A stretch of 61,647 bases of DNA, taken from Lentisphaeria bacterium UBA1776 (lineage in GTDB: Bacteria > Verrucomicrobiota > Lentisphaeria > Victivallales > Victivallaceae). The stretch lies in the NCBI GenBank assembly GCA_002314605.1, contig DCGO01000095.1, positions 1 to 61,647 on the forward strand, given 5' to 3'. The position numbers were made by a program, and so were the translations under genes. Below, one piece after another: positions 19,187 to 50,990 of this stretch (position 1 is the first letter of the stretch; the number at the start of each line of letters is the position of its first letter). The notes under the pieces are model-generated. The model was not told the origin of the DNA and ran no database searches. It saw nothing but the letters and a program-made list of their open reading frames with translations.

Positions 19187-21220
19187 TTATCGGTAGCCCT
19201 TGGTTTCATCGTTGATTTTGGAGTGAATGTCTTCCAGACGATTCTCCCGGTCGGCACGGTCGGCATCCAGTCCGTACTGCTGGAAGAACATGTTGCCCAC
19301 CCGGCTGGTCATACCTTTGTTGACACTCTTGATGATCTTGCCCAGATGGTTACGGACATCGGCCCCCATCTGCTCATCCTCTCTGCTGTATTCCACTTCG
19401 GCGATCAGCACAAGCTGGGACTGCTTGATGGACTCGGTTTCCGTTGAGAATACCCGGCCGATGACCGGCAGATCCTTGAAGAACGGCAGCCCCGCCGTGC
19501 CGCGGACGGATTCGGATTTTTTGAGACCGCCGATGACGAAAGTCTTGGCGTCATACCCGATCTGGACCGTGGTGCTGACATTGGACTCGCTCCGGCGGGC
19601 GGAGCCGTCGGCATTCCAGCCCAGAAGGGAAATGCAGGAGAGGGACACATTCAGCTTGGCGGCATTGCCGGTTACAACCGGAGTGGCCCTGAGATCGAAC
19701 TGGAACCCGTCCGTGACCATAGGATACTGGAGCCAGCCGTGAATGATGCCGGGGGAACAGTTCATGGTGTTGCCGTCGGTGTTGTACCAGGCGGCGGTTA
19801 CGGGAGTCGCAGTACCGTCGGCATTGTATTTGAGATAGCCGGTAAGATACTTGGCCATGGCATCGGTCTTGGAATTGTCCTTGTACGCCACGGCGGAATA
19901 GTCCCCGTAGGTATTGGTGCCGGTCTGGGTACCCATCATGCGCATGGTGTAACCCATGGGAACCATCATGGCGGAACTTCCGGCATTTTTGTAAAAGTCC
20001 TTCAGATCCTGATAAGACATGATCTTGGTGATGGCTTCCCGCTGGATGGTATCCGGATTGGGATCCGTGTAAGTGAATTCAGTGCACGCTTCGGCGATGG
20101 AACTGGCTCCGGCAGTGTAAAAGGTCCGGTCGTAAAAAAAACCGGAATTGACCTGCATGTGACTGGGCTTGCGGTTCTGGGCTACCAGAATGCCGCTGGC
20201 CACGCATTTTGCCTTTCCGATGCTGGTCATGAAATCGAGATAGCGTGTATTCCATTTTGGGTTGAAATTCCAGTAGTCCACAGAGTTGCTTCCGGTCCGC
20301 TGGGCACCGCTGGCATAAAAGGTGCCCCAGTTGCGGCTGGTGACGGTCCCGGCGGAAAAGAGGTCCACACCTTCATTGTTTTTCCAGCTCTGGAAATCCA
20401 CGCCGATACGGTCGTCGTTTTCTGCATAGATCTCCAGGACCCGGTAGGAGATCTTCACTTCCGGGATCTGCCGGTCATATTTCTCCAGCATGGCCTGCAT
20501 GTCATGCCAGTTCCAGTTGGGGGCCTTGATGATCAGGGCATTCAATTCCGCATCCACCACAATTTCCCCGGGCTTCACGGCAAACTGGGGATCCAGGTCC
20601 GATGACCCCACCTTGAGAAGCATGTCACGGAGATTGGATGCCCGGCTGATCTTCGGAAAATAGAGCCGGACTTCCGCGTCCGGCAGAAAGGACAGCCCCG
20701 GCCGGTCCAGTTTGGCCACAATGGCATCCAGGCCCTTGCCGTCTTTGGAATCGGCAAAACGGTAGGCTTCCGCCGAGACCATGACGATCCCGGTGCCGTC
20801 CTTGTATTTAAGGGCAGTGGCTTCCACCGGACTGGCGTTCACCGTCCGGGCCCAGACCGCCGCAGAGAGATAGCTCCGGACCGCATAGGGATCGGCGTGT
20901 TTGAGCACATAGGCTTTGGTGATGACATAGGGGTCCGTATTGTCGCGGATCACATGGACCTGACGGGTATCCTCCTTCACATTGATTTTCAGCTGTGCCT
21001 GAACATGACTGGGAGCATAGCCGCCGGTGGGATCGTCATTGTCCGCACGGGGAGTACCGGCAATGGCATTGGGAGTCAGCATGATCTCCCGGGAGCCCTG
21101 CTGATTCGGGTTGATGATCACGGTGCGAGGCTGCTGTTTCTCCTGCTGCATGTTCTGGCAGCCGTTCAACAGGAGCGCCGCAGAGGAAAAAAGTGAAATC
21201 GAAGAAAATGCATGTTTCAT
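19187..21220 (-). CDS. secretin-family outer-membrane channel, lipoprotein form
   Basis: 677 aa with a lipobox (ALLLNGC). The N-domain-to-secretin junction reads IPEVKISYRVLEIYAENDDRIGVDF. The C-terminal secretin signature reads FVIGGLKKSE..GLPFFKDLPVIGRVFSTETESIKQSQLVLIAEVE. Confidence 0.7.
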   Translation of the reverse strand: MKHAFSSISLFSSAALLLNGCQNMQQEKQQPRTVIINPNQQGSREIMLTPNAIAGTPRADNDDPTGGYAPSHVQAQLKINVKEDTRQVHVIRDNTDPYVITKAYVLKHADPYAVRSYLSAAVWARTVNASPVEATALKYKDGTGIVMVSAEAYRFADSKDGKGLDAIVAKLDRPGLSFLPDAEVRLYFPKISRASNLRDMLLKVGSSDLDPQFAVKPGEIVVDAELNALIIKAPNWNWHDMQAMLEKYDRQIPEVKISYRVLEIYAENDDRIGVDFQSWKNNEGVDLFSAGTVTSRNWGTFYASGAQRTGSNSVDYWNFNPKWNTRYLDFMTSIGKAKCVASGILVAQNRKPSHMQVNSGFFYDRTFYTAGASSIAEACTEFTYTDPNPDTIQREAITKIMSYQDLKDFYKNAGSSAMMVPMGYTMRMMGTQTGTNTYGDYSAVAYKDNSKTDAMAKYLTGYLKYNADGTATPVTAAWYNTDGNTMNCSPGIIHGWLQYPMVTDGFQFDLRATPVVTGNAAKLNVSLSCISLLGWNADGSARRSESNVSTTVQIGYDAKTFVIGGLKKSESVRGTAGLPFFKDLPVIGRVFSTETESIKQSQLVLIAEVEYSREDEQMGADVRNHLGKIIKSVNKGMTSRVGNMFFQQYGLDADRADRENRLEDIHSKINDETKGYR

Positions 21221-21226
21221 GATGAA

Positions 21227-22675
21227 TCACTCCAGATCTTTGCGGAAGGGGTTTTCGATACGGCGCCGGACATCCCGGGTCATACTGGCCGGATCGACGG
21301 GTTTGCTGTTGTTGACATCCTGGGGATGGGCTTCCGCCGTCACCACGATGTAAGTCCGTTCCCGGATGGTGGTCACGGTGCTGAAAAGATATTTGATGAC
21401 GGGGATCCGGCAGAGGATGGGGAGCCCCAGAGTCTGCTCCACGTCATTCTCCTTTTCATAGACAGTCAGAACCTTTTCCACACCGAAGGCCAATGTGGCG
21501 CTGCCCTCCATGATGCTGGAGTTGCTCAACTCCGCTCCGGTGTTGCCCCGCTCCACCACGTTCTTGAAATTCATGGAGTAGCTGAAAAGCACGTTGCCTC
21601 TGCCGTTGTTTCCCAGACAGATGAAGGGATTGAAAATGGTTGCCGACAGCACCGGGGGATCGGCATGCTTGATGCCGTATTCATCTTCGTAATAACTCTT
21701 GCCCACGGAGGTGCGCCCCAGGGTGTTTTTGAAGATGTTCTGGTATTCCGGATACATGGAGATCCGGTAAATGAAGGGGGCCGTATCCGGTTTGGCTGTC
21801 TGCAGCATGAGGAGACTGCGGTAATCCGTTTCATCGCGGACGGGGGTGTTGATCATGGTGAGTCCGGCATTGGCGGCCACGTTGGCGTTGCCGGACTGCT
21901 GAAGACAGCGGATGAAACTCATGTCGATCTGGGGAGCGGTGAAGAATCCGCCGAACCCCCAGGAAGTGCTGGCATTGATGGCAGTATCCGCAAGCCCCTG
22001 GATCACCTGATCCACCGAGAGGTGTCCGGCGTTGTAGGCGGCGTTGAGGAGATTTACACCGGGACCGTTTTTCCAGGCCAGATAGTCAAAACCCCAGTCC
22101 TTCAGATCGCTGTCCCGGATCTCATAGTAGTTGAGCCTGAGGCTGATCTGGGGGATCGGACGGTCCAGCCGGGCGAGAAAGTTCAGCGTCCGGGTGGCGG
22201 CGTTCATCTGGTCGCGCCAGAAGATCGTATTGGTTTCGGCATTTACATAAGCGGCTCCGACGCTGGACCCGGTGGACTGATCGATGATTTCCCGGAACTG
22301 TCTGGCTGCACGGAATTTCGGAGCATACGCCACATGGGCGATGCCGGTGCCTTCCAGACCGGGCCGGTCAATGGTACGGACCAGATCGTCCACCATGGGG
22401 AGAAAATCTTTTCCGGTGGAGACCATGATGGCATTGCCGTTTTTGCCGTCCACGGTGGTGACCCGGCGGACTTCGGAATTGAAGCTGTACCGCTTGACGG
22501 CGGAGTTGATGAAGGGCAGCAGTTCCTGCGCATCGGCGTGCCGCAGTTCATAGACCCGGGTGGCATACCGGACCTGAGCGTCATCCTGCCGCAGGTGGAT
22601 GGTCCGCACCTCGGCGGGCGCCGCACCCAGCACCGTGCAGACGATGCCGAGCAGAATCAAACCGTATTTTTTCAT
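21227..22675 (-). CDS. secretin-family outer-membrane channel (second paralogue)
   Basis: 482 aa with a signal peptide (LLGIVCTVLGAAPAEV). The junction reads IPQISLRLNYYEIRDSDLKDWGFDY. The C-terminal signature reads GLPILCRIPVIKYLFSTVTTIRERTYIVVTAEAH. Its stop lies 6 nt upstream of the next secretin's start. Confidence 0.7.
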   Translation of the reverse strand: MKKYGLILLGIVCTVLGAAPAEVRTIHLRQDDAQVRYATRVYELRHADAQELLPFINSAVKRYSFNSEVRRVTTVDGKNGNAIMVSTGKDFLPMVDDLVRTIDRPGLEGTGIAHVAYAPKFRAARQFREIIDQSTGSSVGAAYVNAETNTIFWRDQMNAATRTLNFLARLDRPIPQISLRLNYYEIRDSDLKDWGFDYLAWKNGPGVNLLNAAYNAGHLSVDQVIQGLADTAINASTSWGFGGFFTAPQIDMSFIRCLQQSGNANVAANAGLTMINTPVRDETDYRSLLMLQTAKPDTAPFIYRISMYPEYQNIFKNTLGRTSVGKSYYEDEYGIKHADPPVLSATIFNPFICLGNNGRGNVLFSYSMNFKNVVERGNTGAELSNSSIMEGSATLAFGVEKVLTVYEKENDVEQTLGLPILCRIPVIKYLFSTVTTIRERTYIVVTAEAHPQDVNNSKPVDPASMTRDVRRRIENPFRKDLE

Positions 22676-22751: not shown

Positions 22752-23189
22752 TTAAAGGAAGTTGAATCCGAGGATCGCGATTTCCTTATCGGAGGTCTTT
22801 CCGGTGATGATCCGGAAGAGCGCCTCGCTGTGGATGATCTTCTTGTCTTTGTCGATCCGCTCGAAACGGATTTTCCAGATGTGGGGCGTCACTGCCACAA
22901 ATTCCAGACTGGTAAGATACTGGAAGGAGATGGGCTGTCCCAGCGTTTCCACAATGTATCCCCGGGTGCTGTTGAATTTCTTTTCATCGAAGCGCGCCCG
23001 CTGTTCTTCCGGCAGAAGCTCGACGAATTCCGACGGATTGTTTTTCAGAAACGCCATCAGAAGTTCCCGGCAGAGCGTCAGCTCTTTGCCGGCATTTTTC
23101 GGCAGTGCCCGCTCCGGAGGCTGTTCCAGGATAGTGGTACAGCCCGCCAGCAGTGCCGCCGCAATCGCAAGCAGGAACAAATGTTTCAT
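22752..23189 (-). CDS. small lipoprotein of unknown function
   Basis: 146 aa from ATG 23189, with lipobox MKHLFLLAIAAALLAGC. It is the first gene of the secretin operon. No family recognised by eye. Confidence 0.55.
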   Translation of the reverse strand: MKHLFLLAIAAALLAGCTTILEQPPERALPKNAGKELTLCRELLMAFLKNNPSEFVELLPEEQRARFDEKKFNSTRGYIVETLGQPISFQYLTSLEFVAVTPHIWKIRFERIDKDKKIIHSEALFRIITGKTSDKEIAILGFNFL

Positions 23190-26445: not shown

Positions 26446-26447
26446 CT

Positions 26448-27250: not shown

Positions 27251-28990
27251 ATGGCAAGAGATTCGGAATATATTCTTGAGCTGCTTCTGGATTACGGACT
27301 GGTGAATGAGGAGCAGATCAGCCAGGCCAAGGCGGAATCCAAGTCGGTGGACGGCAGCCTCGACCCGGTGGACCTGCTTCAGAAACTGGGATATCTGAAG
27401 TCGGAGGACCTGACCGCAATGCTGGCACAGCATTACGGCATGGAGATCATGGATCTCAAAAAATACGAGATCCCGGATGAAGTGGTCCAGGCGCTGACAC
27501 CGGATATTGTTCATCACTACAACGTGGTCCCGGTCATGCGGCACGGCGACATGCTGACCGTGGCCATGAGCGACCCGACGGATCTGGAAACATTGGACTC
27601 CATCCGTTACTATCTGGGGCGGGATGTGGAAGCGGTGGTTGCCGATCCGGGGCAGATCAAGCAGCTGATCGACAAATATTATCCCACCGCCGGTGCCGGC
27701 GGCAGCGTGGAAAACCTGATCGAGACTCTGGGGGAGGAGAGCAACGATTTTCTGGTGGAGACCGGCGCGGATACTTCCGGCGGCGGCACCATCGGCGGAG
27801 CGGAGACGGTGGGGGAAGAGACTGCACCGGTGATCAAACTGGTGCACATGCTGATCATTGAGGCATACAAGGCCAAGGCATCGGATATTCACCTGGAACC
27901 CATGGAAAAACGCTACCGGGTCCGCTACCGTATTGACGGGGCCTTGCGGGAGGTGGAAGGGCCTCCCAAATTCATGCAGGCAAGTTTCACCAGCCGCGTC
28001 AAGATCATGAGCCGGCTGGATATCACCGAAAAACGCATCCCCCAGGACGGACGTATCAAGATGCGCGTCAACGACAAGGATATCGACCTGCGTGTTTCCA
28101 GTATCCCCACCACCCACGGCGAAAGTATCGTCATGCGTATTCTGGACCGGGCCAGCATCCAGCTGGACATCCCGAAACTGGGGTTCTATGCGGACGACCT
28201 GGAACTGGTGAACGGGATCATCAACATGCCGGACGGGATCTTCCTCGTCACCGGGCCCACGGGGTCCGGCAAGACCACCAGTCTGTACGCATTTCTGAAC
28301 ACCATCAATACCGTGAGCCGAAAGATCATCACCGTGGAGGACCCGGTGGAATACCAGCTGGACGGTATCAACCAGGTGCAGGTGGACCGGGCCATTGAAA
28401 TGACTTTTGCCGCAGCACTGCGCGCCATGCTCCGTCAGGCGCCGAACATCATCATGGTGGGAGAGATCCGAGACCTGGAAACGGCGGAAATCGCCATCAA
28501 CGCCTCGCTTACCGGACACCTGGTGTTCAGTACCCTGCACACCAACGATGCCCCCGGCACCATCGCCCGACTGGTGGATATGGGGGTCAAACCATTTCTG
28601 GTGGCCTCTTCCGTGCGTGCGGTCATGGCCCAACGGCTGGTGCGCCGGATCTGCAAGAACTGCAAGAAACCTTACAGCCCGAGCAAATATGAGATTCAGC
28701 TTCTGGGGATGACCCAGGAGTATCTGGACAGTCACCAGTTCTACAAGGGTACCGGCTGCGACAAGTGCGGCCGCACCGGATACAAGGGCCGGGTGGGTAT
28801 TTACGAGATTTTCATGGTCACCGAAGATCTGGCCAAGCTCATTTTCCGCAACGAACCCAGCAGTACGATCCGGGAAGCCGCCCGGCGGAACGGCATGCGT
28901 TCTCTGCGGGATGATGCCATCCGCAAGGCGGAAGCCGGGACGACCACGCTGGAAGAGGTAATCTACACGACCCTCATGGACGAAAACTGA
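27251..28990 (+). CDS. GspE/PilB-family type IV filament assembly ATPase (copy 1)
   Basis: 579 aa from ATG 27251. Has a T2SSE_N-like N-terminus, the Walker A block [43 protein letters not shown], and a tetracysteine cluster CKNC...CDKC. Confidence 0.9.
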   Translation: MARDSEYILELLLDYGLVNEEQISQAKAESKSVDGSLDPVDLLQKLGYLKSEDLTAMLAQHYGMEIMDLKKYEIPDEVVQALTPDIVHHYNVVPVMRHGDMLTVAMSDPTDLETLDSIRYYLGRDVEAVVADPGQIKQLIDKYYPTAGAGGSVENLIETLGEESNDFLVETGADTSGGGTIGGAETVGEETAPVIKLVHMLIIEAYKAKASDIHLEPMEKRYRVRYRIDGALREVEGPPKFMQASFTSRVKIMSRLDITEKRIPQDGRIKMRVNDKDIDLRVSSIPTTHGESIVMRILDRASIQLDIPKLGFYADDLELVNGIINMPDGIFLVTGPTGSGKTTSLYAFLNTINTVSRKIITVEDPVEYQLDGINQVQVDRAIEMTFAAALRAMLRQAPNIIMVGEIRDLETAEIAINASLTGHLVFSTLHTNDAPGTIARLVDMGVKPFLVASSVRAVMAQRLVRRICKNCKKPYSPSKYEIQLLGMTQEYLDSHQFYKGTGCDKCGRTGYKGRVGIYEIFMVTEDLAKLIFRNEPSSTIREAARRNGMRSLRDDAIRKAEAGTTTLEEVIYTTLMDEN

Positions 28991-29004
28991 TCGAGGTAAA
29001 GATT

Positions 29005-30705
29005 ATGCTTGATACCGAAAGTTTGGCACTCATTGACCTGCTGATCAACGAACGGGGGGCCGACAATCCGGCGCTGAAGGATCAGCTCAAGGAAGTGGAG
29101 GAAGAACACGCCCGCTCCGGAAAGCCGGTGCTGGAGATCATCGAGAACTACGGGATCTTCAAACGCAAGGAGATCCTGGATATGATAGCGGAAAGTCTGG
29201 GCTCCTATGTCTGGACCACTTTCGATACGGAGGATATTGAGCTGGAGGTCATCAAGAAAGTTGACCAGAATACCGCCCGGAGTTACAAAATCATCCCGCT
29301 GAAGATCGATGAGAGCGGCACGATGCTGCTTGCCATGCGGAATGCACTGGACTTTCAGACAGTGGAATCTCTGCAGTTCATTCTGAACGTGACCATCCAG
29401 CCGGTGGTGGTGGACCCGGATGTGCTGGACGCCCAGCTGGACCGTTATTACCCGGAGAAAACCGACAATGTCCACGACATTCTGGAAGTACTGAAAGACA
29501 GTGCCGAAGGGGAGAAGGTGGACGAAAAGGACATTGAGTCCATGGCCAACGATGCGCCGGTGGTGAAATTCGTGGATGTGGTCATGCAGCAGGCTATCCG
29601 GGACAAGGCGTCGGATATCCATTTCGAGCCCTTTGAGAAAGAATTCCGCATCCGTTACCGGGTGGACGGCGCGCTGTACGAAATGCCCCAGCCGCCGAAA
29701 AGTCTGGCGGTCCCGGTCATCAGCCGCGTGAAAATCATTTCCGGACTGAATATTTCCGAGCGCCGCCGCCCGCAGGACGGCCGTATCGAGCTCAGGGTCA
29801 ACGGCAAACCCATTGACATGCGTGTATCGTGTCTGCCCACAAGCTACGGGGAATCCGTGGTGCTCCGGGTGTTGGACCGGTCGGTGGTGAATCTGGATCT
29901 GGATGCCCTCGGCATGGAACCGGCGCTCCTCAATAAACTCCGGGAGATCATCCATCTGCCCAACGGGATTTTGCTGGTGACCGGTCCCACAGGGTCCGGC
30001 AAGACCACAACATTGTATTCGGCGCTGCGGGAAATCAACGTGGTTTCCGACAAACTGCTGACCGCCGAAGACCCGGTGGAGTACGATATCGAAGGGATCG
30101 TGCAGGTCCCCATCAACGATGCCGTGGGCATGACCTTCGGCAAAGCGCTGCGGGCCTTTCTGCGGCAGGACCCGGACCGGATCCTGGTGGGAGAGATCCG
30201 CGACTTCGAAACTGCCCAGATCGCCATTGAAGCGGCCCTGACGGGACACTTCGTCTTCAGTACACTGCATACCAACGATGCCGCCAGTACGGTGACTCGA
30301 CTGGTGGATATGGGGGTGGAACCCTTCCTCATCTGTTCTTCCGTGTCCGGGATTCTGGCCCAGCGGCTGATCCGCCGGGTCTGTTCGGAGTGCAAGACCA
30401 GTTACGTTCCAACCGATCAGGACCTCAAGCGGCTGCGCATCGACCGTTCGGAAATCGGCGACCACCTGTTTTATTACGGCAAGGGGTGCAGTGTCTGTCA
30501 CGGTACCGGATACAAGGGCCGGAAAGCCATCTGCGAACTTCTGGTGGTCAATCAGGAGATCCGGGACCTTATTTTTGCAGGGGCCCCGCACACCGCCATC
30601 CGGGACAAGGCGAGGGAACACGGAATGCGGACAGTCCGGGAAGACGGTCTGCAGGCGATCTTCAACGGCGAGACATCCGTGGACGAGGTCGTCCGCTATA
30701 CATAA
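29005..30705 (+). CDS. GspE/PilB-family type IV filament assembly ATPase (copy 2)
   Basis: 566 aa with the same architecture: [47 protein letters not shown]...CSVC. Starts 14 nt after copy 1. Confidence 0.9.
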   Translation: MLDTESLALIDLLINERGADNPALKDQLKEVEEEHARSGKPVLEIIENYGIFKRKEILDMIAESLGSYVWTTFDTEDIELEVIKKVDQNTARSYKIIPLKIDESGTMLLAMRNALDFQTVESLQFILNVTIQPVVVDPDVLDAQLDRYYPEKTDNVHDILEVLKDSAEGEKVDEKDIESMANDAPVVKFVDVVMQQAIRDKASDIHFEPFEKEFRIRYRVDGALYEMPQPPKSLAVPVISRVKIISGLNISERRRPQDGRIELRVNGKPIDMRVSCLPTSYGESVVLRVLDRSVVNLDLDALGMEPALLNKLREIIHLPNGILLVTGPTGSGKTTTLYSALREINVVSDKLLTAEDPVEYDIEGIVQVPINDAVGMTFGKALRAFLRQDPDRILVGEIRDFETAQIAIEAALTGHFVFSTLHTNDAASTVTRLVDMGVEPFLICSSVSGILAQRLIRRVCSECKTSYVPTDQDLKRLRIDRSEIGDHLFYYGKGCSVCHGTGYKGRKAICELLVVNQEIRDLIFAGAPHTAIRDKAREHGMRTVREDGLQAIFNGETSVDEVVRYT

Positions 30706-30738
30706 TTTTGCAACAGGTTCAACAGGGAGAATTTTCTG

Positions 30739-31812
30739 ATGATTGAGATGGCGGATCTTCTGCAGTTTTGCGTGGACGAGGGGGCAAGCGACCTGCATAT
30801 TGAGGTGGGGGCGCCTCCCAGCGTCCGGTTGCACGGGGATATTACCCAGCTTGAACTGCCGCCGCTGACGCCGGAGGATTCGGAGCATCTCCTGAAATCC
30901 ATTGCTTCGGATGCCCATCTGCAGCAGATCCAGGCGGAGGGAACTGCGGACTTCGGGGTCGGGTTCGGGGATCAGGCCCGGTTCCGTGTCAGCGCTTTCC
31001 GGCAGAAAGGCTGCTTCGGGATCATTCTGCGCCAGATCCCAAACCAGCTGCTGACCTTTGAACAGCTCGGGCTGCCCGGCGCGGTAAAGGATCTCCTGTG
31101 GCGGCCCCGGGGGCTGGTGCTGGTGACCGGTCCCACCGGATCCGGCAAATCCACCACACTGGCCAGCATGATCAATATCATCAATACCGAGCGGGCCTGC
31201 AACATCATTACCATTGAGGACCCCATTGAATTCTACCACCAGCACAAAAAAAGTCTGGTCATGCAGCGGGAGGTGGGGGTGGATACCACCAGTTTTTCCG
31301 AAGCGCTGCGCCGGGCGCTGCGTCAGGACCCGGATGTGATTCTGGTGGGGGAAATGCGGGATATTGAGACGATCGGCGCAGCGGTTTCAGCGGCGGAAAC
31401 AGGACACCTGGTGTTCGGCACGCTGCACACCACCGGTGCGGCCCGGACGGTGGACCGGATCGTGGATGCCTTCCCGACCAATCAGCAGGAGCAGATCCGC
31501 ACCCAGCTGGCCAGTTCGCTGGTGGGGGTCATTTCCCAGCAGCTTCTGAAACGCTGCGACAAATCCGGCCGGGTCGCCGCCTTTGAGATCATGGTGAACA
31601 CGCCGTCCATTCAGGCGCTGATCCGGGACAACAAGACCTTCCGGATCACCTCGGAACTGCAGACCGGGGCCAAATTCGGGATGAACACCATGGATTCCCA
31701 CCTTGTGGAACTTTTCCGGGCGGGAAAGATCGATTATCCGGAAATGATTACCCACGCCCAGGACCAGGATGCCGTAATTGAGAAACTCCGGGCCGAAGGG
31801 GATCTGAAGTAA
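30739..31812 (+). CDS. pilT: PilT-type retraction ATPase
   Basis: 357 aa with no N-terminal T2SSE_N domain. Has [62 protein letters not shown] and [17 protein letters not shown]. Confidence 0.9.
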
Positions 31813-31833
31813 CACAGGAAAGGAGCCTCGCAA

Positions 31834-33090
31834 ATGCCTCATTATCTTTATACAGCCGTGAATGCTTCCGGCAAGGAGCAGAAGGGCAAGATCCAGGCGG
31901 CCAGTCCGGAGGAAGCAGCCGAGCTTCTGAAGAAACAGCAGCTCTTCATCACCTCCATCAAGGACGCTGATGCCAAAAAAAACGCCCCCGCCGCCAAAAA
32001 AGGCAAGGCCAAGGGCGGTGCCATGAACATTTCTCTGGGGGCCCCCGTCATCAAGAAAAAGGAGCTGGTGGTGCTGACCCGGCAGCTGGCGACATTGCTG
32101 GATGCGGGACTGCCCCTTATCCGTTCACTGCGGACACTGGAGCGGCAGGCCAAAAACCCCGTTGTGGCCAAGGTTCTCAATTCAGCGGCGGAAACCGTGG
32201 AAGGCGGCGCCACTTTTGCCGAAGCGCTGGCCAAGCACCCGAAATCCTTCGATAAACTCTATCTCAACATGATCCGTGCCGGAGAGGCGTCGGGTGCCAT
32301 GGAAGTCATTCTGAACCGTCTGGCGACCTTCATGGAAAAAGCCTCCAAGATCGCCGGCAAAGTCAAGTCCGCCATGATCTACCCGGCGGTGGTGCTCTCC
32401 ATCGCCGGTCTGGTCACCGCCGGTTTGATGGTATTCATCGTGCCGAACTTCCAGAAGATCTTCGGTGAACTCCTTGGTCCGAAGGAACCCATGCCGGCCA
32501 TTACCCAGCTGGTCATGAATACCAGTAAGCTCATGAAGGAGCAGGGGTGGATCTTTCTGGTGGCCGGTGCGGTTATCATCGTGCTGTACAAAATCGTCAA
32601 CAGCAATAAATACGGCAAGTGGGGCATCGACTGGGTCAAGTACAATATGCCGCTTTTCGGGCCTTTGATTTCGCGGACGGCCATTTCCCAGTTTGCCCGT
32701 ACCCTGGGCACGCTGATGAGTTCCGGCGTGCCGGTGCTGAATGCGCTTATCATTGTCCGGGATACCGCCGGCAATGAGGTGGTGACCACCGCCATTCAGA
32801 AAGTCCACGATGCGGTGAAGGAAGGTGAAGGCATTGCCGGCCCCCTGGGTGCCACCGGAATCTTTCCCGCCATGGTGATCAGTATGGTGGAAGTCGGCGA
32901 AGAGACAGGTAAGCTTCCCGACATGCTTGACCGTATTGCCGATACCTACGATGAAGAAGTTGACAATGCTGTGGGAGCCCTGACAAGTATGATCGAACCC
33001 CTGATGATCGTGGGACTGGCAGTGGTCGTGGGTACCATCGTTGTGGCGCTCTTCCTCCCGCTGACCAAGCTGATCGAAAAACTGGGTTGA
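31834..33090 (+). CDS. GspF/PilC-family inner-membrane platform protein
   Basis: 418 aa with two repeated T2SSF-type modules (..LATLLDAGLPLIRSL.. and ..LGTLMSSGVPVLNAL..) and three TM segments. Confidence 0.9.
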   Translation: MPHYLYTAVNASGKEQKGKIQAASPEEAAELLKKQQLFITSIKDADAKKNAPAAKKGKAKGGAMNISLGAPVIKKKELVVLTRQLATLLDAGLPLIRSLRTLERQAKNPVVAKVLNSAAETVEGGATFAEALAKHPKSFDKLYLNMIRAGEASGAMEVILNRLATFMEKASKIAGKVKSAMIYPAVVLSIAGLVTAGLMVFIVPNFQKIFGELLGPKEPMPAITQLVMNTSKLMKEQGWIFLVAGAVIIVLYKIVNSNKYGKWGIDWVKYNMPLFGPLISRTAISQFARTLGTLMSSGVPVLNALIIVRDTAGNEVVTTAIQKVHDAVKEGEGIAGPLGATGIFPAMVISMVEVGEETGKLPDMLDRIADTYDEEVDNAVGALTSMIEPLMIVGLAVVVGTIVVALFLPLTKLIEKLG

Positions 33091-44132: not shown

Positions 44133-44150
44133 GCGGTATCAAGATACCGC
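44133..44150. terminator. hairpin between convergent genes (candidate bidirectional terminator)
   Basis: GCGGTAT-caag-ATACCGC, a perfect 7-bp stem with a 4-nt loop, between the GH4 stop (44091) and the minus-strand pilin stop (44150-44152). No strong U-tract. Confidence 0.35.
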
Positions 44151-44635
44151 TAATTGGTGATGTCGTCGGCGTTATTGGCGGTATTGTCCGGGCCAATGGA
44201 GCGAACCGTGAAAGCCTTGTGATTTGCGGTATCGGGAGAGGTGTAGAGAAGTTTGTTTCCCCAGGCATCGCAGAGTTCGCCATCGGCATCAATGTACTGC
44301 CGCAGGGATTCCAGATCCAGCATCTTGCGGAAATCTTTGACGTACCTTTCCGGCACATTGCCCCAGCGGATGTTGAGCGCGTTGTCCGCAATGTCGGCAC
44401 CGCCGGTGTCCAGCAGCTGAATGTGGTTCCCGGTTCCCAGTGCAGTCGAATAAAACCCGTGCTTGACCTTGCCGGACTCCAGGGCGGCTTCGATTTGCTT
44501 GATGACGGCCCGGGTGGCGGATTCCCTGGCGGAATTGTTGGCGTAGGAGTAGCCCCCGATGGCAATCCCGGCCAGGACCGCCAGCAGCGCCACCACCATC
44601 ACGATTTCAATCAGGGTGAAAGAAAATTTTTTCAT
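44150..44635 (-). CDS. GspG-like (major-type) pseudopilin, second copy
   Basis: 161 aa. Has the N-terminus MKKFS-FTLIEIVMVVALLAVLAGIAIG with Glu at +5, then DAWGNKLLY and SIGPDN..NNADDITN, which resemble the GspG DPWGNPY and GPDG..DDI motifs. Confidence 0.75.
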   Translation of the reverse strand: MKKFSFTLIEIVMVVALLAVLAGIAIGGYSYANNSARESATRAVIKQIEAALESGKVKHGFYSTALGTGNHIQLLDTGGADIADNALNIRWGNVPERYVKDFRKMLDLESLRQYIDADGELCDAWGNKLLYTSPDTANHKAFTVRSIGPDNTANNADDITN

Positions 44636-44646
44636 AAATAAAGTTC

Positions 44647-45255
44647 CTATTTTTTCTTTTTTTCTTCGACAAATTTCGGCTGTTTGGCCTTGGCGGCGGC
44701 TTCCTGAGCATTCAGGCGCTCAAGGACGGCTTTTTTGATGTCGGCAAGATTGTTCATCCGCTTGACGTTGGTGCATTTGACGGGGCGGCGGCTGACCGCC
44801 CAGTACTCCTTGGCGGTCTTGTTGTAATAGTCGTACCACTGACGGTATTCCTGACTGGCGGTCTGTTTATTGGCGGCCAGAAACCCGAGCTGGATCTTGG
44901 CTTTCAGCAGGGCTTCGGCATAGGCGATGTTCTGTTTGACCCAGCGGCGGGAAAGGCCGGAATCGGATTCGAGAAAATAATACTTGTCGAACCGCTTCAA
45001 ATCCAGAATGTCGAAGCGGAGTTTCGGGACCGTCACATTTTTCCCCTGCAGAAAATCCTTGGAAATGGCGGAAATCTGCAGTTTCAGATACTCGTCGGAA
45101 AGGGCGCTCTTCACCCACTGGAGTTCCATGCCGGAAAAGGTTTTGGGAACGTCCGGCGGGATCTCCACCGCCGCCTTCTTCTTCCCCCGGGGGGCGGCGG
45201 CCAGAGTGAGCGCCAGCATCAGAAGCAGCAGGAGTGAAAAAAGATGTTTCAGCAT
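44647..45255 (-). CDS. secreted Lys-rich protein of unknown function
   Basis: 202 aa with a signal peptide (LLLLLMLALTLAAAP) and a very basic C-terminal tail (AAKAKQPKFVEEKKKK). No family recognised. Embedded between the GspK-like and GspG-like genes with 11-12 nt gaps. Confidence 0.5.
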   Translation of the reverse strand: MLKHLFSLLLLLMLALTLAAAPRGKKKAAVEIPPDVPKTFSGMELQWVKSALSDEYLKLQISAISKDFLQGKNVTVPKLRFDILDLKRFDKYYFLESDSGLSRRWVKQNIAYAEALLKAKIQLGFLAANKQTASQEYRQWYDYYNKTAKEYWAVSRRPVKCTNVKRMNNLADIKKAVLERLNAQEAAAKAKQPKFVEEKKKK

Positions 45256-45267
45256 GGTTGATGATCC

Positions 45268-48261
45268 TTAATCCAGCGGTTCCAGCCGCAAAAGTTTGAC
45301 TTTCCGGTTTGCGGCATCGGTGCCGATTTCGGCGTAGAAGCGCACGGTTCCGGTGATCTCGTCAAAATAAACCCCGTTGTTTCCAATCTCAAATTTTCCG
45401 GAATAGACTGTGGCCGTTTCCGCAGCCGCACCGGGATTGTCCGGCCGCTGTTTGCTGACGGAGAAGCCGGCGGTGGTTCCGATATCCCGGATGGACTGCG
45501 CCGCCAGGATCAGCGTCACCGGGTCCGGGGGCCGGGGATAAAAGCTGACCAGACCGGATACCAGTGCGGGAATGGTTTCCTGCTGGGCGTCCGTAGTTGG
45601 GGCGACCTGGCCGTAGGCATTGTACAACTTCTGACCGCTGGCGGGGGAATAATTGACCAGTTCCGCCCGGCTGAAGAATTTCAGATCCGGCGTCGCAGCT
45701 GTATCCCGTCGGGCCAGAATATTTCCGGCGGCAACCGCCTGTGTTTCCCCAATGGCGGTCCCGGCATATTCATAATTCCAGTGATCCGGCCAGTTCCAGA
45801 CCAGTCCCCGGAAAAGTCCGGCATAAAGCAGGGTGCTTTCCACGGTATTTGCCCCAGGCGGATTGTTGATACAGAGCCGGTGGGGGACTTGGACCCGGGG
45901 GGTGAGTTTGACCTGGTCCAGAATCCCGGCATCCCCCTGTGCATAGGTATCCCCCTCATCTTCCATGCCGGAAAGAGGTGTGTCCGTGGGGACCCTTCTG
46001 GTGGCCCTTAAGTTGAGGGTCTGCCACTTGGCGGCACGGTGAATGCCTCCCAGTTCCGCAAAAGACTGCATGGGAGCGTTGCGGATATAAGCGCTGGAAA
46101 TATTTTCCGGCAATGCCGCCGATTCCATGTCCTTGTCGGCAACGGCTCCGGCACTGTTGGCCGGGTTGCAGAAATCGTTTTTGGTTTTGAACGTAAACTT
46201 TATTCCCATGGCGGCTTCGCTGCCCGCCGCGGTCCCGGTCCCGGTCCCGGTCCCGGAAACCGTTTCCGGACCGTCTCCAGATCCCGTCCCCATGGAAGCG
46301 GGGACTTCCACCGGACGCCAGTTCATGGAGGCAACCTCGGTTTGGGACCCCTGATACAGGTTTTCCCGGGGATCATCCGCCTCAAATCCGATATGGGGAT
46401 AGAAGGTCAGGGATTCATCGCTGCTGAAGGATGTATTGAGAAGCGTTGTTCCGTCTCCAAATTGCTCAAAAACCAGATCCCGGACATAATCAACACTGCC
46501 GTCGGATGTTTTCAGATGCACATTGCTGATGGAAAGTTTTTTGATTTTGACCTTGGCGTTCAGAGGGGCCGTCAATTTTATAGTGCTTTGCGGGGTGGAG
46601 AAATTCAAAGACCCGAGGGTAATGGAATTTCCTGCCGCATCGGTCAGAACCAGATTGGCATCGGGAGTTCCGTTGAGCGACAGGATTTTGTACGCATAGC
46701 GCCCGTCTGCGGTCCAGGCGGAGGCGGAACCGCTCAGGGGAATGGAAAATGCACACTTGACTTCCTGAATACGCTTTGCGTCCGCGATGGTCTGTTCCCC
46801 GTCAATGATCTCCACGGTAAACGAAAACTCCCCGGCAATGGACACATCCATATCCGGCATGGTTTCTTCATACATATTGAAGACCTCCACCGCCGCAATG
46901 CGGAGGCCGATGTCATAGCTGTACTCGTACTGGTATTGCGGCGGCTGGCCGTCGGTACCGGGAAAAGCCGTCTCCTGACGCCGGAGCGAAATGGAGGGCC
47001 CGATCATGATCTCATTGATGTACGGGGTCTTTTCATTGCCGGTATAGGTGGGAGGCGTGGTTTCCCAGTCAGCGGAATCCGAGGTGGCAATGCTGTCGGT
47101 ATCGCAGTAGTCGATCAGATTGGCGGCGATCTGCTTCCTTCTGGCGGTCAGGGTGGGATAACTTCCCTTGTCCTTGTGGATCCGGCGCAGGGCGGGGATG
47201 CTGTCAGCCGTTTTCGTGACGTCCCCCACACCCAGCACCGGCAGTGTCATACCTTCTCCGAGAAGCCGCAGGACCAGAGCGTCACTGTTTTTAATATTGC
47301 TCTCGTTACCCAGTTGCTCCCAGTCCGTCCGGGTCAGGTCGAAGCGGTGATATTTGACGTGACTTCCCGGAGTGTTGGGGTTAAAATCCTGTTTGTTGTA
47401 CGCATTGGCGTTGGCCGTGGTGTCCACGTACATATAAACTTCCTCCTCCGTGCCGCTCGGCGGCAGGAACCGGCGGATCACATTGCGCATGCCCAGGGAC
47501 AAGCTGGTCCTGCCGTTGAACATGTCCTGAAAAGTGCTGTAATCGTTGGCCCGGGCGGAATCCTGCTCTTGGCATGTTGTTTTGATGGACTCTTCCGAAG
47601 CGAAACGGTTGTCCAGATCATCCAGCTGCGTTTTCTGCCAGTCCGTCGGATTGGTCAACGTGGTATCCAGATTCAATTCCCGGATACCGAATCCCCGCCG
47701 TCTGGTCCATGTGCTTTTCGTATTCGTGGGAGAAAGGGCCGGATTTCCCCGCAGGATCTCCGAAAAATTCACCGAGCCGGTGGGGAGGATCCAGTAGGCG
47801 TACCGGCCGATGATGGTCGCATTATTGGCCCGGCGGCCGTCGGCATTGTACCCGCTCCAGAGATACTGCCACTGTTCCAAACCGGAAGCCCGGCGCTCTG
47901 TATTGTCGATGGTGGCGGTCAAAAGACTGGTGGCGGGGGTACTCAATTGATCGTTCCGGCCGGCGGCCGGGACATCCTCTTCGCCGGCTTTGAAAACCTC
48001 GGAATTGATGGAGCTCTTCAAATTGCCGATGCCGTCGGCGTCCCCTTGCTGCAGATAGTAGCGCATCAGCATCATGACCCGGTTGACGGCGGAGCGCCCC
48101 AGGAGATTCGCCTGGGTGCGGAAGCGGTAGGCGGCGGCGGTCTTCTGGGAAAGCAGCGTATTGGTGATGAAGGCGATCCCGGTGGCCAGGAGGAGGCTCA
48201 AGATCCCCAAAGAGAGCAGCAGAGCCACTCCATCCTGGCGGTGTTCTGCACGATATTTCAT
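45268..48261 (-). CDS. giant GspK-like minor pseudopilin
   Basis: 997 aa. The N-terminus HRQDGVALLLSLGILSLLLATGIAFI.. is a GspK-style hydrophobic segment without Glu+5. The gene lies directly after the J-like gene (TAATG overlap). A late block reads IRNAPMQSFAELGGI. Confidence 0.65.
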   Translation of the reverse strand: MKYRAEHRQDGVALLLSLGILSLLLATGIAFITNTLLSQKTAAAYRFRTQANLLGRSAVNRVMMLMRYYLQQGDADGIGNLKSSINSEVFKAGEEDVPAAGRNDQLSTPATSLLTATIDNTERRASGLEQWQYLWSGYNADGRRANNATIIGRYAYWILPTGSVNFSEILRGNPALSPTNTKSTWTRRRGFGIRELNLDTTLTNPTDWQKTQLDDLDNRFASEESIKTTCQEQDSARANDYSTFQDMFNGRTSLSLGMRNVIRRFLPPSGTEEEVYMYVDTTANANAYNKQDFNPNTPGSHVKYHRFDLTRTDWEQLGNESNIKNSDALVLRLLGEGMTLPVLGVGDVTKTADSIPALRRIHKDKGSYPTLTARRKQIAANLIDYCDTDSIATSDSADWETTPPTYTGNEKTPYINEIMIGPSISLRRQETAFPGTDGQPPQYQYEYSYDIGLRIAAVEVFNMYEETMPDMDVSIAGEFSFTVEIIDGEQTIADAKRIQEVKCAFSIPLSGSASAWTADGRYAYKILSLNGTPDANLVLTDAAGNSITLGSLNFSTPQSTIKLTAPLNAKVKIKKLSISNVHLKTSDGSVDYVRDLVFEQFGDGTTLLNTSFSSDESLTFYPHIGFEADDPRENLYQGSQTEVASMNWRPVEVPASMGTGSGDGPETVSGTGTGTGTAAGSEAAMGIKFTFKTKNDFCNPANSAGAVADKDMESAALPENISSAYIRNAPMQSFAELGGIHRAAKWQTLNLRATRRVPTDTPLSGMEDEGDTYAQGDAGILDQVKLTPRVQVPHRLCINNPPGANTVESTLLYAGLFRGLVWNWPDHWNYEYAGTAIGETQAVAAGNILARRDTAATPDLKFFSRAELVNYSPASGQKLYNAYGQVAPTTDAQQETIPALVSGLVSFYPRPPDPVTLILAAQSIRDIGTTAGFSVSKQRPDNPGAAAETATVYSGKFEIGNNGVYFDEITGTVRFYAEIGTDAANRKVKLLRLEPLD
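46231..46254. repeat. hexanucleotide microsatellite (GGTCCC)x4 inside the GspK-like gene
   Basis: Four perfect tandem copies read directly from the sequence. They encode (Gly-Thr)4 in SGTGTGTGTAAG on the minus strand. Confidence 0.9.
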
Positions 48262-49037
48262 TAAAACACCCCTAAGTAAATGATCCGGACAAATTCGTAT
48301 TCGTTTTCCTGACGGAACTGCAGCTGGGCGGCGTTTTCCGTCCCGGCCCCCCGCTGCGCGATCCAGGTGTCAAAGGCGTTCTTCGGCATCATTTTCAGGG
48401 TGATCTGCACCGCATGGGGGAACACTCTTGAGGAATACGCGCCGGAGTTCAGGATGTTGAACCCGCTTCCGAAGAGCCGGAATCGGAGTTCCGTAATATG
48501 CCCGACAATGGTTTCCGTGTTATTGGTGAAAACAGTGGATGCCGGACAGGCGGCAGCATTGATGAAATTCGTATTCCCGTTGTCGTTGGCCACCTTCAGC
48601 ACCTGATCGGCGATCACGCCGTTGTCAAGTTTGTTTTCCAGCCAGAAAGACATGTAAAACGCCTTCTGAAATTCCGTTGCCGATGTATGGGAGGAGGGAT
48701 AAAAGGGGGAGTTCCGTGAAAGGTTCACCGGGAAGATCAGCCGCCCGGAGGTATTGTTGTCCGCCGTGGCGCCGAACCAGAAGATCTCCTGATTGTAGGT
48801 GTCGCCGGCTGCCTGATAATAAACGCTCTGCAGTGCGCTGGACATCAGGTCCATGGCGATCCGGGCGTCCGCATACATGTTGTTTTTATCGTCCGTCCGG
48901 CTCCACAGTTTCTGGGTGTCCGTAAAGAATCCAATCACCATCATCATCATGATGGAAAAAATCGCCATGGCGACGATCAGCTCCACCAGGGTAAAGGAGG
49001 ATTTCCGGAACCTGTGTTGAATTTTTCTCATGGTCAT
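48261..49037 (-). CDS. GspJ-like minor pseudopilin
   Basis: 258 aa. Has the N-terminus ..RFRKSS-FTLVELIVAMAIFSIMMMMVIGFF (Glu+5) and sits in the J position of a G-H-I-J-K array. Confidence 0.7.
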   Translation of the reverse strand: MTMRKIQHRFRKSSFTLVELIVAMAIFSIMMMMVIGFFTDTQKLWSRTDDKNNMYADARIAMDLMSSALQSVYYQAAGDTYNQEIFWFGATADNNTSGRLIFPVNLSRNSPFYPSSHTSATEFQKAFYMSFWLENKLDNGVIADQVLKVANDNGNTNFINAAACPASTVFTNNTETIVGHITELRFRLFGSGFNILNSGAYSSRVFPHAVQITLKMMPKNAFDTWIAQRGAGTENAAQLQFRQENEYEFVRIIYLGVF

Positions 49038-49039
49038 GA

Positions 49040-49600
49040 TCAGGCTCCGTAGTCGTAAAGATCAAACCGGTAAATCTGCTTTTCCCGGTCGGCATAAGGT
49101 TTCGTCAGGGGGTAGCTCACTTCGATGAAAATGATTGCGGAACCGGTGGTCATGGAAACCGGAGCCGCCTGGCCCGGAACATGGATGAAATTGCTTTCCC
49201 TCCAGACTCTGGCTTCGGCGGCGAAATCCACCACCGATGCACCATTCACCGTATGGCTCTGCTCATACTTGAAAAGCCCCGCCGTCCCGCAATAGAATAC
49301 CGGCGTATTGGGAATATTGGTCCAGCCGATGGAGGCCGGTTCGCCCGGTTTTGCGGTAGGAAGTCCGTTCAGCAGGGTACTGGAGCGGGGAGAGGTCCCG
49401 GACCGCTGCCACTGATCGCGGATGCTGGTTTCCAGATATCCGGCAAAATACAGCGCCGCATCGGGAACGCTGTTGTCGGCGGTGGCGCTGTTGGTGGCAT
49501 TCAGCCCCACCGGGAAGAGGACCAGGATGCTGGACATGCCGATGGCGATGACCCCCAGCGCCAGCATGATCTCGATCATATTGAAGAACTGCTTTTTCAT
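49040..49600 (-). CDS. GspI-like minor pseudopilin
   Basis: 186 aa. Has the N-terminus MKKQF-FNMIEIMLALGVIAIGMSSILVLFP (Glu+5). The start overlaps the H-like stop (ATGA). Confidence 0.65.
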   Translation of the reverse strand: MKKQFFNMIEIMLALGVIAIGMSSILVLFPVGLNATNSATADNSVPDAALYFAGYLETSIRDQWQRSGTSPRSSTLLNGLPTAKPGEPASIGWTNIPNTPVFYCGTAGLFKYEQSHTVNGASVVDFAAEARVWRESNFIHVPGQAAPVSMTTGSAIIFIEVSYPLTKPYADREKQIYRFDLYDYGA

Positions 49601-50268
49601 TTGATCCTGCCGTTTTCATCAATTTCGGAAACCAGGGCACGACCGGTAAAACGGTTGACGGTGACGGCCATGACGTTGGCGGTGGCATTGCTGCCGCTCC
49701 GCTGGCTCTTATAGATATAATTGCCGTTGGACAATGTGGCCTCCCCCACGCCGATGTAGAAATTCTGATTGGGAGCGACCACGTTCCCGTAGGCGGCGTA
49801 CACGATCCCGGGGCGGGAAGCCGTCGCTCGCCCGACCACCCCGGTGATCGTCTGCAGTGCCGAGGTTCCCGGCGCGGCTCCGTTGGTGGGAAACGAGGGC
49901 TGCGTCCCTTCGCCGCCGTTGTCGAAGATCAGCATCTGGGCGTCTTCCTTCAGCGGGACCCAGTCGGAACCCTCCACCCATCCTTGAAATGCATAAGTAT
50001 TGGAAACATAGCAGTTCCGCAGCGCCTGCGTGTCGGTGAGGCCGGAAACGGTACCGCCCAAGTCAATCACCGTCGCCACGTATTTCCGGTCGTTGATGGC
50101 CCGGGCCTGGGCGAGGTCGAGAGTGTTTTTGATGAGGCCGCAGGTCACGGCCACGCTGTTCCCGTGCATCAAGGCTGAAAAGGCCGGCAGCGCCATGGCC
50201 GCCAGCATGGCCGCCAGCGCCATCACCACCATGATCTCAATTAACGTATAATGCCGAACCTCTTTCAT
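49597..50268 (-). CDS. GspH/FimT-like minor pseudopilin
   Basis: 223 aa from ATG 50268. Has the N-terminus MKEVRH-YTLIEIMVVMALAAMLAAMALPAF (Glu+5). The ORF track extends to a GTG at 50301. Confidence 0.7.
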   Translation of the reverse strand: MKEVRHYTLIEIMVVMALAAMLAAMALPAFSALMHGNSVAVTCGLIKNTLDLAQARAINDRKYVATVIDLGGTVSGLTDTQALRNCYVSNTYAFQGWVEGSDWVPLKEDAQMLIFDNGGEGTQPSFPTNGAAPGTSALQTITGVVGRATASRPGIVYAAYGNVVAPNQNFYIGVGEATLSNGNYIYKSQRSGSNATANVMAVTVNRFTGRALVSEIDENGRIK

Positions 50269-50288
50269 ACGGCCCCTGCTGTTCCGCT

Positions 50289-50990
50289 TTACTTTTCCCA
50301 CCCGCGGACATCGTCGGTCTGGGAAGTGCCGCCGTTGTCGGAATTGAAACTGCCGTTATCGGCGCCATTGGGGCCGTAAGAGTAGATGAACACTTTGCCG
50401 TGCAGCACCAGATTGTTTCCGTCATAATTGGCCGGCGGATTCAGAACCTGGGCGGCGGGGATATAGACCTTTTCCGAACTGTCGGTGCAGATATTGATGT
50501 CATAGGGATTTCCCCACGGGTCGCGCCAAAGTGTGCTGTCATCGCCGGAACTGTAATCCGCCCGGGGATCCAGATACTTGATGTTGCGGATATTGAAATT
50601 CTTGTCGGAAGAAGTCACATCCCGGGGAACCGACAATTCCCGGATCAGGGCATTGTACTGGGTCGAGGAACTGCCGTTGTAGCGGACTACATGGACCGTA
50701 TTGCTGCTGTATGCAGTGGCATTTCTTGCAATGGCGCCGCCATTCACGTTGTAACTCGAATTGACTCTCAAGATCGTCTTGTAATCCCGCTCCACGCCGG
50801 AGAGGGCCATCTTGATGGCACTCATGTCCGCCTTCGCCTGAGTGATCATGCCCCTGGTCTTCGCACTCTGGATCGCCGGAATACCCAAGCCGGCAAGCAG
50901 CACGATGATCCCGATCACCACCAGCAGCTCCACCAGCGTAAACGCCGATCTCTGTTGCATGATGTGTTGAGATGTGTAACCCGTCTTCAT
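50289..50990 (-). CDS. GspG-like major pseudopilin, first copy
   Basis: 233 aa with GGGAGG 6 nt upstream of ATG 50990. Has the N-terminus ..MQQRSA-FTLVELLVVIGIIVLLAGLGIPA (Glu+5) and RDPWGNPY. Confidence 0.8.
   Translation of the reverse strand: MKTGYTSQHIMQQRSAFTLVELLVVIGIIVLLAGLGIPAIQSAKTRGMITQAKADMSAIKMALSGVERDYKTILRVNSSYNVNGGAIARNATAYSSNTVHVVRYNGSSSTQYNALIRELSVPRDVTSSDKNFNIRNIKYLDPRADYSSGDDSTLWRDPWGNPYDINICTDSSEKVYIPAAQVLNPPANYDGNNLVLHGKVFIYSYGPNGADNGSFNSDNGGTSQTDDVRGWEK

Follow-up and report, generated by a model that had tools for sequence, protein, structure and literature searches.

Few nanomachines of the bacterial envelope are as well studied as type IV filament machines, and what is known about them comes almost entirely from Proteobacteria and a few other phyla. 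In the type IVa pilus (T4aP), pilB-pilT-pilC is a common operon, and the gene order H-I-J-K is common to the T2SS (type II secretion system) and the core minor pilins of the T4aP (fimU-pilVWX). We analyzed a stretch of 61,647 nucleotides (nt), contig DCGO01000095.1 (GCA_002314605.1) of Lentisphaeria bacterium UBA1776, a member of the Victivallaceae in the Planctomycetes-Verrucomicrobia-Chlamydiae (PVC) superphylum. This whole stretch, hereafter the window, carries filament-machine genes in three separate loci: a secretin module (locus A), a motor module (locus B) and a pilin cassette (locus C).

T4aP genes are normally distributed over several loci, many systems outside the model phyla are classed as 'generic', and one of these is the T2SS of the Chlamydiae, also PVC bacteria, in which neither GspLM nor minor pilins are recognizable (Denise et al. 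2019, PMC6668835). In Planctopirus, Plim_0410-0401 is among the largest putative operons and consists of four T2SS-annotated genes followed by six lineage-specific unknowns (PMC10632474), and dextran-binding pili-like fibers are described from the Planctomycetes, a sister phylum (PMC5394234). The Verru_Chthon cassette (TIGR02596/02598/02599/02600) is a PVC set of four genes, encoding three pilin-like proteins and one very large protein. Our literature searches returned nothing specific on this cassette, on Lentisphaeria pili or on a Lentisphaeria T2SS.

We find that the three loci represent a conserved, uncharacterized PVC version of a type IV filament machine. On balance, we favor the view that they are three modules of one Lentisphaeria machine, a deep-branching variant that lies between the T2SS and the T4aP and is not a fusion of the two. 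About 55 open reading frames (ORFs) of the window were scanned with Pfam and NCBIfam (Table 1), and the family matches, too strong to be due to chance, bore out the gene content that an earlier reading of the same DNA (the original prediction) had assigned to the three loci; marR, 20 bp downstream of the Sec1 gene, lies just outside its start coordinate. The claim made there that the loci add up to one machine is plausible; they could supply its motor, its conduit and its filament-initiation parts.

Table 1. Genes of the three filament-machine modules in the window (aa, amino acids; AF2, AlphaFold2)
Module	Feature	Coordinates	Strand	Evidence
A	NTF2-like lipoprotein, 145 aa, first gene of secretin operon	22752..23189	-	AF2 fold
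A	Sec2, divergent secretin paralogue, 482 aa, Sec signal peptide, no lipobox	21227..22675	-	Paralogy to Sec1
A	Sec1, lipidated secretin, 677 aa, lipobox LLNGC	19187..21220	-	Pfam Secretin 3e-13, 50 bits (cut-off 27.5)
A	MarR-family regulator, last gene of secretin operon	18720..19166	-	Pfam MarR 6e-10
B (27251-33090)	PilB1, extension ATPase (PilB/GspE-like) with MshEN N-domain	27251..28990	+	T2SSE 5e-141
B	PilB2, second extension ATPase with MshEN N-domain	29005..30705	+	T2SSE 2.5e-137
B	PilT retraction ATPase	30739..31812	+	TIGR01420 468 bits (cut-off 319); PDB PilT matches 1e-102
B	PilC/GspF inner-membrane platform	31834..33090	+	T2SSF 9e-64
C (44150-50990)	G1, GspG-like pilin, 233 aa, WRDPWGNPYD (DPWGNPY motif)	50289..50990	-	N_methyl 21.4 bits; GspG N-terminus 1.2e-9
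C	H-like minor pilin, 234 aa	49597..50301	-	Weak N-terminal matches to GspH and Verru_Chthon D
C	I-like minor pilin, 186 aa, FNMIEI pilin-type N-terminus	49040..49600	-	No family match
C	J-like minor pilin, 258 aa	48261..49037	-	N_methyl 2e-7
C	K997, K-like tip candidate, 997 aa	45268..48261	-	GspK match E=0.006, residues 9-73 only
C	u202, orphan secreted/periplasmic helical protein after K997, 202 aa	44647..45255	-	Conserved signal peptide, AAP cleavage-like end
C	G2, more canonical GspG-like pilin, 161 aa	44150..44635	-	Pfam T2SSG 28 bits (cut-off 21)

The window is part of the chromosome of an uncultured gut Victivallaceae bacterium. Its GC content is about 58%, and it carries genes of the chromosomal core, namely dxs, gyrB, recA, an exbB/exbD-TPR cluster, dut, thyX, metK/ahcY-type genes and def. 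Homologues of its proteins came from metagenomes, and the source labels, where given, were Lentisphaeria or Victivallaceae. When species genomes were scanned with PilC, the platform protein, 80 genomes labeled Lentisphaeria, Victivallaceae or Victivallales came up, whereas several hundred Lentisphaeria species genomes carry a pilC relative. Of the 80, a metagenome-assembled genome (MAG) from roe-deer caecum is the closest by this protein (85% identity; Victivallis vadensis DSM 14823, 71%). Gene neighborhoods were compared in 160 loci, 80 from these genomes (around pilC) and 80 from distant metagenomes (around the cassette); the locus set is numbered to L170, and L001 is from the window organism.

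In Lentisphaeria relatives the modules are conserved, each as an operon that stands alone. The operon lipoprotein-Sec2-Sec1-MarR recurs in two relatives (L009 and L010) in unrelated neighborhoods, with the lipoprotein gene upstream of Sec2 and marR in its usual position in both. The tandem pair pilB1-pilB2, within the operon pilB1-pilB2-(pilT)-pilC, is kept in 75 of 82 related loci. The complete seven-gene cassette was found outside the window only in L003 (52-63% identity), with reduced forms in L005 and L007. Its H-I-J-K core was seen again among the 80 loci from distant metagenomes, where 50 have H, 55 have I, 45 have J and 74 have K. The synteny of the three loci in relatives, on which the original prediction was to be checked, was not there: in none of the 160 loci was a secretin or cassette gene within 10 kilobases (kb) of pilC, or a secretin within 10 kb of the cassette. 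No fused operon of the 'Rosetta stone' kind turned up in the 80 genome and 80 metagenome loci either. The single near-adjacency came from a low-GC (34%) metagenome lineage (L103:945-12712), where an H-I-J-K-type cassette lies about 5 kb from a lone pilB-like gene on the opposite strand. Because the modules lie more than 10 kb apart in relatives, their clustering within 32 kb in the window is incidental. Cassette and motor were found in one genome twice. On contig CALXOD010000016.1 the cassette (0.3-2.9 kb) and pilC (near 97.6 kb) are about 95 kb apart. In the MAG CAYODJ01 (L005 and L022) identity to the window is about 70% for the motor genes and only 25-40% for the cassette proteins, a divergence that could be due to fast evolution or to a paralogous cassette.

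The original prediction had described the system as a hybrid. The ATPase core scored nearly equally against PDB proteins of either kind (Geobacter PilB 430 bits, Myxococcus PilB 415, Vibrio GspE 412, Thermus PilF 384), and so did the platform (387 bits on the PilC model and 386 on the GspF model, under the equivalog cut-offs of 700 and 424, respectively). Sec1 gave about 55-59 bits on the PilQ, MshL and GspD models of NCBIfam alike (GspD 54.6 against a cut-off of 351; PilQ 58.9 against 284), and its PDB matches to GspD and PilQ chains were weak and equal. No equivalog cut-off was reached for GspD/E/F/G/H/I/J/K or PilB/C/Q. Because ATPases, platform and secretins score about equally on T2SS and T4aP models, and the H-I-J-K order belongs to both systems, the term 'hybrid' is mostly an effect of naming; judged by these scores, the mixed labels appear to reflect a deep-branching lineage scored against proteobacterial models, and no fusion. 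The three-locus layout had been called atypical, but encoding in several loci is the usual state of the T4aP (PMC6668835).

Compared with the T4aP of Myxococcus and Geobacter, the window shares the order pilB-pilT-pilC, the PilB architecture and multi-locus encoding. PilB, PilT and PilC are all present, PilT above its cut-off, PilB1 just under it and PilC through the T2SSF family model only. By analogy with established knowledge of P. aeruginosa (fimU-pilVWX-pilY1-pilY2-pilE), the cassette also has a large protein, a small non-pilin and a final pilin. Unlike in the T4aP, there is no pilMNOP beside the secretin, the secretins are duplicated and carry no PilQ-type AMIN domain recognized by Pfam, and PilB is duplicated. 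Furthermore, the candidate major subunits of the window are all GspG-like and not PilA-like, K997 has no PilY1 or PilX fold match, and the prepilin leaders lack Gly at position -1. The likeness to the T2SS lies in the GspG-like subunits with the DPWGNPY motif, the Pfam T2SSG match, the G-H-I-J-K-like order and a K-like protein that keeps G|VAL and lacks Glu5, as in GspK (Glu5 is also absent from PilX). In contrast to the T2SS, which has no retraction ATPase, a PilT orthologue lies inside the motor operon; GspC/L/M were not found in the window, no Gsp equivalog cut-off was reached, three operons take the place of one gsp cluster, and there are two ATPases and two secretins.

Two PVC gene sets are also comparable. 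Like the Verru_Chthon cassette, locus C has three small pilin-like genes followed by a protein of about 1000 aa, stands alone in PVC-type genomes, and has J-like and H-like proteins whose N-termini match Verru_Chthon proteins C and D. The match to C reaches 9e-14, yet 51.5 bits against a cut-off of 256.5; that to D is 24.3 bits against 70, and A and B gave no match. The cassette of locus C differs further in being flanked by two GspG-like genes and in including u202. Plim_0410-0401 of Planctopirus limnophila resembles the window in gene layout, in that four T2SS-annotated genes of a PVC relative are followed by lineage-specific unknowns replacing canonical assembly parts (PMC10632474); it is, however, a single operon from another phylum.

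Pseudopilins in G-H-I-J-K order had been predicted for locus C, of which the order and the GspG-like ends stand. G1 gave no Pfam T2SSG match. G2, found at the same position in L003, matched the GspG equivalog at 3.4e-12 (46.6 bits against a cut-off of 88.85). The labels of the other four genes are not backed by the GspH/I/J/K models, none of which reaches its cut-off in the cassette; the similarity is N-terminal only, and no T2SS minor pseudopilin was recognized.

K997 has 242 homologues. Its N-terminus G|VALL is invariant and without Glu5, and G10 and A12 are invariant as well. The AF2 model of K997 (predicted local distance difference test, pLDDT, 82; predicted template modeling score, pTM, 0.81) shows an N-terminal helix of 70 residues and a large body rich in beta structure. 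Foldseek and a 62-sequence profile found no relative of it in the PDB, and a PilY1 or GspK fold for this protein is therefore unsupported. We regard K997 as a candidate giant tip or initiator subunit working like GspK or PilX, and claim a candidate role, not family membership. The protein encoded next to it, u202, was found in only 19 clusters among 1.84 billion representatives, has no match in Pfam, NCBIfam or PDB and no hydrophobic segment beyond its signal peptide, and keeps its position in L003 and L005.

In model systems, a Gly at -1 is considered indispensable to cleavage by PilD, and a class III signal peptide combines it with Phe/Met at +1, Glu at +5 and a hydrophobic helix. The six pilin-like genes of the window (within 44150-50990 and at 51880-52638) have Phe or Tyr at +1, Glu at +5 and the helix, and at -1 they have A, H, F, S, S and Q (Ala in G1). 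With a motif that requires Glu at +5, we collected N-termini from the window and from related loci, 190 of them distinct. Phe was at +1 in 179 of them and Gly at -1 in 9, with Pro, Arg, Phe, Asn, Lys and Tyr each commoner than Gly at -1. The same scan of the E. coli gsp operon, as a control, found Gly at -1 in 4 of 4. The K-like protein is the sole pilin-like member that keeps an invariant Gly. These sequences point to a peptidase of relaxed specificity or to a different processing.

No Peptidase_A24 or other prepilin peptidase was detected in the window with Pfam, NCBIfam or tblastn (Lentisphaeria PilD and E. coli GspO as queries). The E. coli GspO query hit one locus, L069, in which an ORF at 12783-13634 matched A24_N_bact (2e-33) and Peptidase_A24 (2.5e-15). 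Orthologues of this PilD (66-70% identity) are at the same place in L074 and L082, near 12800-13636. In these three Victivallaceae MAGs the gene lies about 1.5 kb downstream of pilC-coaX, and it was not found in the other fetched loci. Because the lineage thus has a canonical PilD, the missing peptidase of the window organism is, from these sequences, probably a PilD encoded elsewhere in its genome.

Two secretins had been predicted for locus A, and they hold, as two old paralogues of which Sec2 is full-length, because Sec2 aligns with the Sec1 family over 430 columns (hhalign 98.4%; BLASTP 3e-17 against Sec1), including the GLP..P(V/I)IG..FS motif. In Pfam, Sec2 scored below cut-off on Secretin_N (27.2 bits) and Secretin (21.3 bits), and both matches recur in two orthologues. 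The C-terminal domain of the Secretin family (PF00263) is accordingly found in Sec1 above the cut-off and in Sec2 below it, with the support of hhalign. A conserved C-terminal tail extends beyond the secretin domain in both proteins, and the lipobox Cys of Sec1 is nearly invariant among 24 homologues. The 145-aa lipoprotein has no sequence match in Pfam, NCBIfam or PDB. Its AF2 model (pLDDT 87.6) is an NTF2-like alpha+beta cone, for which Foldseek returned NTF2, ketosteroid-isomerase and CaMKII-hub folds (E about 3e-5). The lipoprotein has 139 homologues, of which those with a source name are from Lentisphaeria, and it could be a lineage-specific secretin partner.

We infer that the three modules work together, with module B as motor and inner-membrane platform and module A as outer-membrane channel with its own regulator. 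Module C would supply the GspG-like fiber subunits and a tip/initiation complex built on the giant K-like protein. The pilin-like proteins would be inserted into the inner membrane, and a PilD-type peptidase encoded elsewhere, which would have to accept residues other than Gly at -1, would cut their short leaders. The H-I-J-K set would then prime assembly on PilC, PilB1 and PilB2 would power the polymerization of G-like subunits toward the secretin, and PilT, in this clade, could depolymerize the fiber. The GspG-like subunits, the dispensability of pilT in many relatives and the prepilin-type genes beside sugar-binding and glycosidase genes suggest that the likely role is to secrete, to display at the surface or to capture in connection with glycan use, and that retraction was added on in this clade.

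Several points weigh against a single machine of this kind. The modules are never adjacent in relatives, and nothing links the three directly. A second platform, a second secretin, and PilMNOP or GspCLM may sit elsewhere in the genome. The labels H, I, J and K derive from N-termini and gene order alone. The two PilB paralogues could mean two filaments and not one, and in 60% of genomes the operon lacks pilT, so that retraction may not be a core property.

A bolder proposal, which we make tentatively, is that the Lentisphaeria, and perhaps free-living PVC bacteria more widely, possess a distinct class of machine. This class would do without PilMNOP or GspCLM and would combine a hetero-oligomeric channel of two secretins and an NTF2-like lipoprotein with two extension ATPases, a giant tip primer of novel fold and a PilD with relaxed specificity at -1. 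If true, such a machine could assemble or display the many modular prepilin-like proteins of the lineage for glycan capture. The absence of PilMNOP/GspCLM, the paired secretins and the cleavage after residues other than Gly would, if true, reveal which textbook parts are dispensable and widen the known specificity of prepilin peptidases. They would also provide a handle on protein export and display by abundant PVC glycan degraders of the gut and the sea. The most surprising features are the paired secretins, the giant tip protein without a PDB match and the leaders without Gly; the two extension ATPases are also odd. The Lentisphaeria machine can be tested in the cultured strain zth2 and in Victivallis vadensis.

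The motor genes bear on another possibility, which we consider rather doubtful, that two machines share parts: a T2SS-like pseudopilus (one PilB, PilC and the G-K cassette) and a retractile pilus (the other PilB, PilT and other prepilin-like proteins, e.g. of DUF1559/SBP_bac_10 type, such as that at 51880-52638). The two extension ATPases, 44% identical, are paired across the class, and Walker A/B, His box and tetracysteine motif are intact in both. PilT is a variable add-on: of 70 Lentisphaeria genomes, 28 have a true orthologue between pilB2 and pilC. The operon of the other 42, V. vadensis among them, is without it, and in these genomes pilB2 and pilC are direct neighbors, 21-173 bp apart. 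Extra prepilin-type genes beside sugar-use genes (the window, L003 and L010) would also fit two machines. However, the operon holds a single platform gene, and the 80 genome loci showed no other PilC within 10 kb. Moreover, neither ATPase leans clearly to GspE or PilB. PilB1 falls just short on both models (PilB 669.6 bits against a cut-off of 675.65; GspE 629.6 against 630.25), and PilB2 reached 602.4 bits on the GspE model, which has the same cut-off. The top PDB matches of PilB1 are the Geobacter and Myxococcus PilB, whose full-length architecture it has. Its MshEN domain scored 18.6 bits against a cut-off of 38, and binding of cyclic di-GMP is thus not claimed.

Returning to the single machine, we considered its inner-membrane assembly subcomplex. 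The original prediction had recognized no GspC/L/M, PilM/N/O/P or prepilin peptidase in the 61 kb, and profile scans and tblastn agree: neither the T2SS nor the T4aP subcomplex was found in the window by Pfam or NCBIfam. E. coli GspC/L/M gave nothing by tblastn in the window and 170 related loci, and HofM/N/O/P were negative in the window and in the related loci (2.47 Mb), both weak tests. Upstream of the secretin in relatives, where pilMNOP would be, are the NTF2-like lipoprotein and Sec2. The missing parts had been expected either elsewhere in the genome or among the unassigned proteins of these loci. The former proved apt for the peptidase (PilD in L069, L074 and L082), the latter did not: none of the proposed replacement proteins is a credible stand-in on present evidence. 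The modeled NTF2-like fold of the lipoprotein, which has no PilP/GspC beta-sandwich, appears to rule it out as a PilP, GspC-HR or pilotin stand-in. A bitopic PilN/O/GspL/M-like role of u202 is ruled out by the signal peptide with AAP motif, the helical body and the absence of Pfam and PDB matches. Neither the trypsin-like protease at 33823-34479, a candidate leader peptidase, nor the zinc-finger protein at 34570-35559, a candidate machine part, lies beside the operon even in the closest relative (motor genes 85-89% identical). CoaX, of ASKHA fold and translationally coupled to pilC, was rejected as a PilM analogue; it keeps the motifs of type III pantothenate kinases, and in relatives a nucleotidyltransferase-like gene (by eye mannose-1-phosphate guanylyltransferase-like) separates pilC from coaX, which also counts against this role. 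The same intervening gene, being nucleotidyltransferase-like, is not PilD.

It is unlikely that the window holds dispersed pieces of ordinary systems with nothing streamlined about them, the standard gsp and/or pilMNOPQ-pilD loci lying elsewhere. The canonical PilD of relatives and the normal scattering of T4aP genes (PMC6668835) agree with this explanation. Against it, the lipoprotein and the second secretin occupy the place of pilMNOP in the Lentisphaeria secretin operon, the weak tblastn tests found no similarity to GspC/L/M or HofM/N/O/P across related loci of 2.47 Mb in all, the equivalog models of GspD/E/F/G/H/I/J/K and PilB/C/Q all stayed below cut-off, and the prepilin leaders lack Gly at -1. 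Very unlikely, in our view, is a secretin module unrelated to the PilB/PilC motor and serving other export, such as nozzles for exopolymer ('slime') or a system of Tad-like or phage-like type: the module never adjoins motor or cassette, has its own MarR regulator, and secretins have been implicated in slime secretion (PMC12475490). However, without a secretin, a diderm that has PilB, PilC and GspG-like subunits could perform no surface function with them, the identity of Sec1 across Lentisphaeria and Victivallaceae (58-75%) is similar to that of PilC across the 80 genomes (63-85%), and the top family matches of Sec1 are PilQ, MshL and GspD.

Some neighboring genes were also noted. The coaX gene (33092-33826), for type III pantothenate kinase, begins 1 nt past the pilC stop codon, and 65 of 82 related loci have it on the downstream side of pilC. 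The first phosphate motif of CoaX is N-(V/I)-G-N-T, not D-x-G-N-T, in the window and in L030, L035 and L069. The zinc-finger protein mentioned above has 329 aa, two CxxCxGxG-type motifs and no family match, and was found only in this organism (L001). A HepT/MntA (type VII) toxin-antitoxin pair (51021-51724), whose ORF calls overlap by 85 nt, is directly upstream of the pseudopilin cassette. Farther on, at 51880-53620, genes for a prepilin-type protein of 252 aa and for a sugar-binding protein (Peripla_BP_4) form a pair, which is also present in L003 (5323-7003). In L010, two SBP_bac_10/N_methyl proteins are encoded beside glycoside hydrolase genes of families GH130 and GH42. These pairings hint at a link of pilin-like proteins with glycan use.

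Scans of the window for promoters and terminators gave no more than chance expectation. At 25933-27143, a lipoprotein-like ORF of 170 aa (25933-26445) and the beginning of thyX, as called, have 52 nt in common, and the true thyX start is probably further downstream. At 4729-7683, a polysaccharide deacetylase comes after a formyltransferase/epimerase fusion of ArnA-like type, which suggests a sugar modification of the aminoarabinose type.

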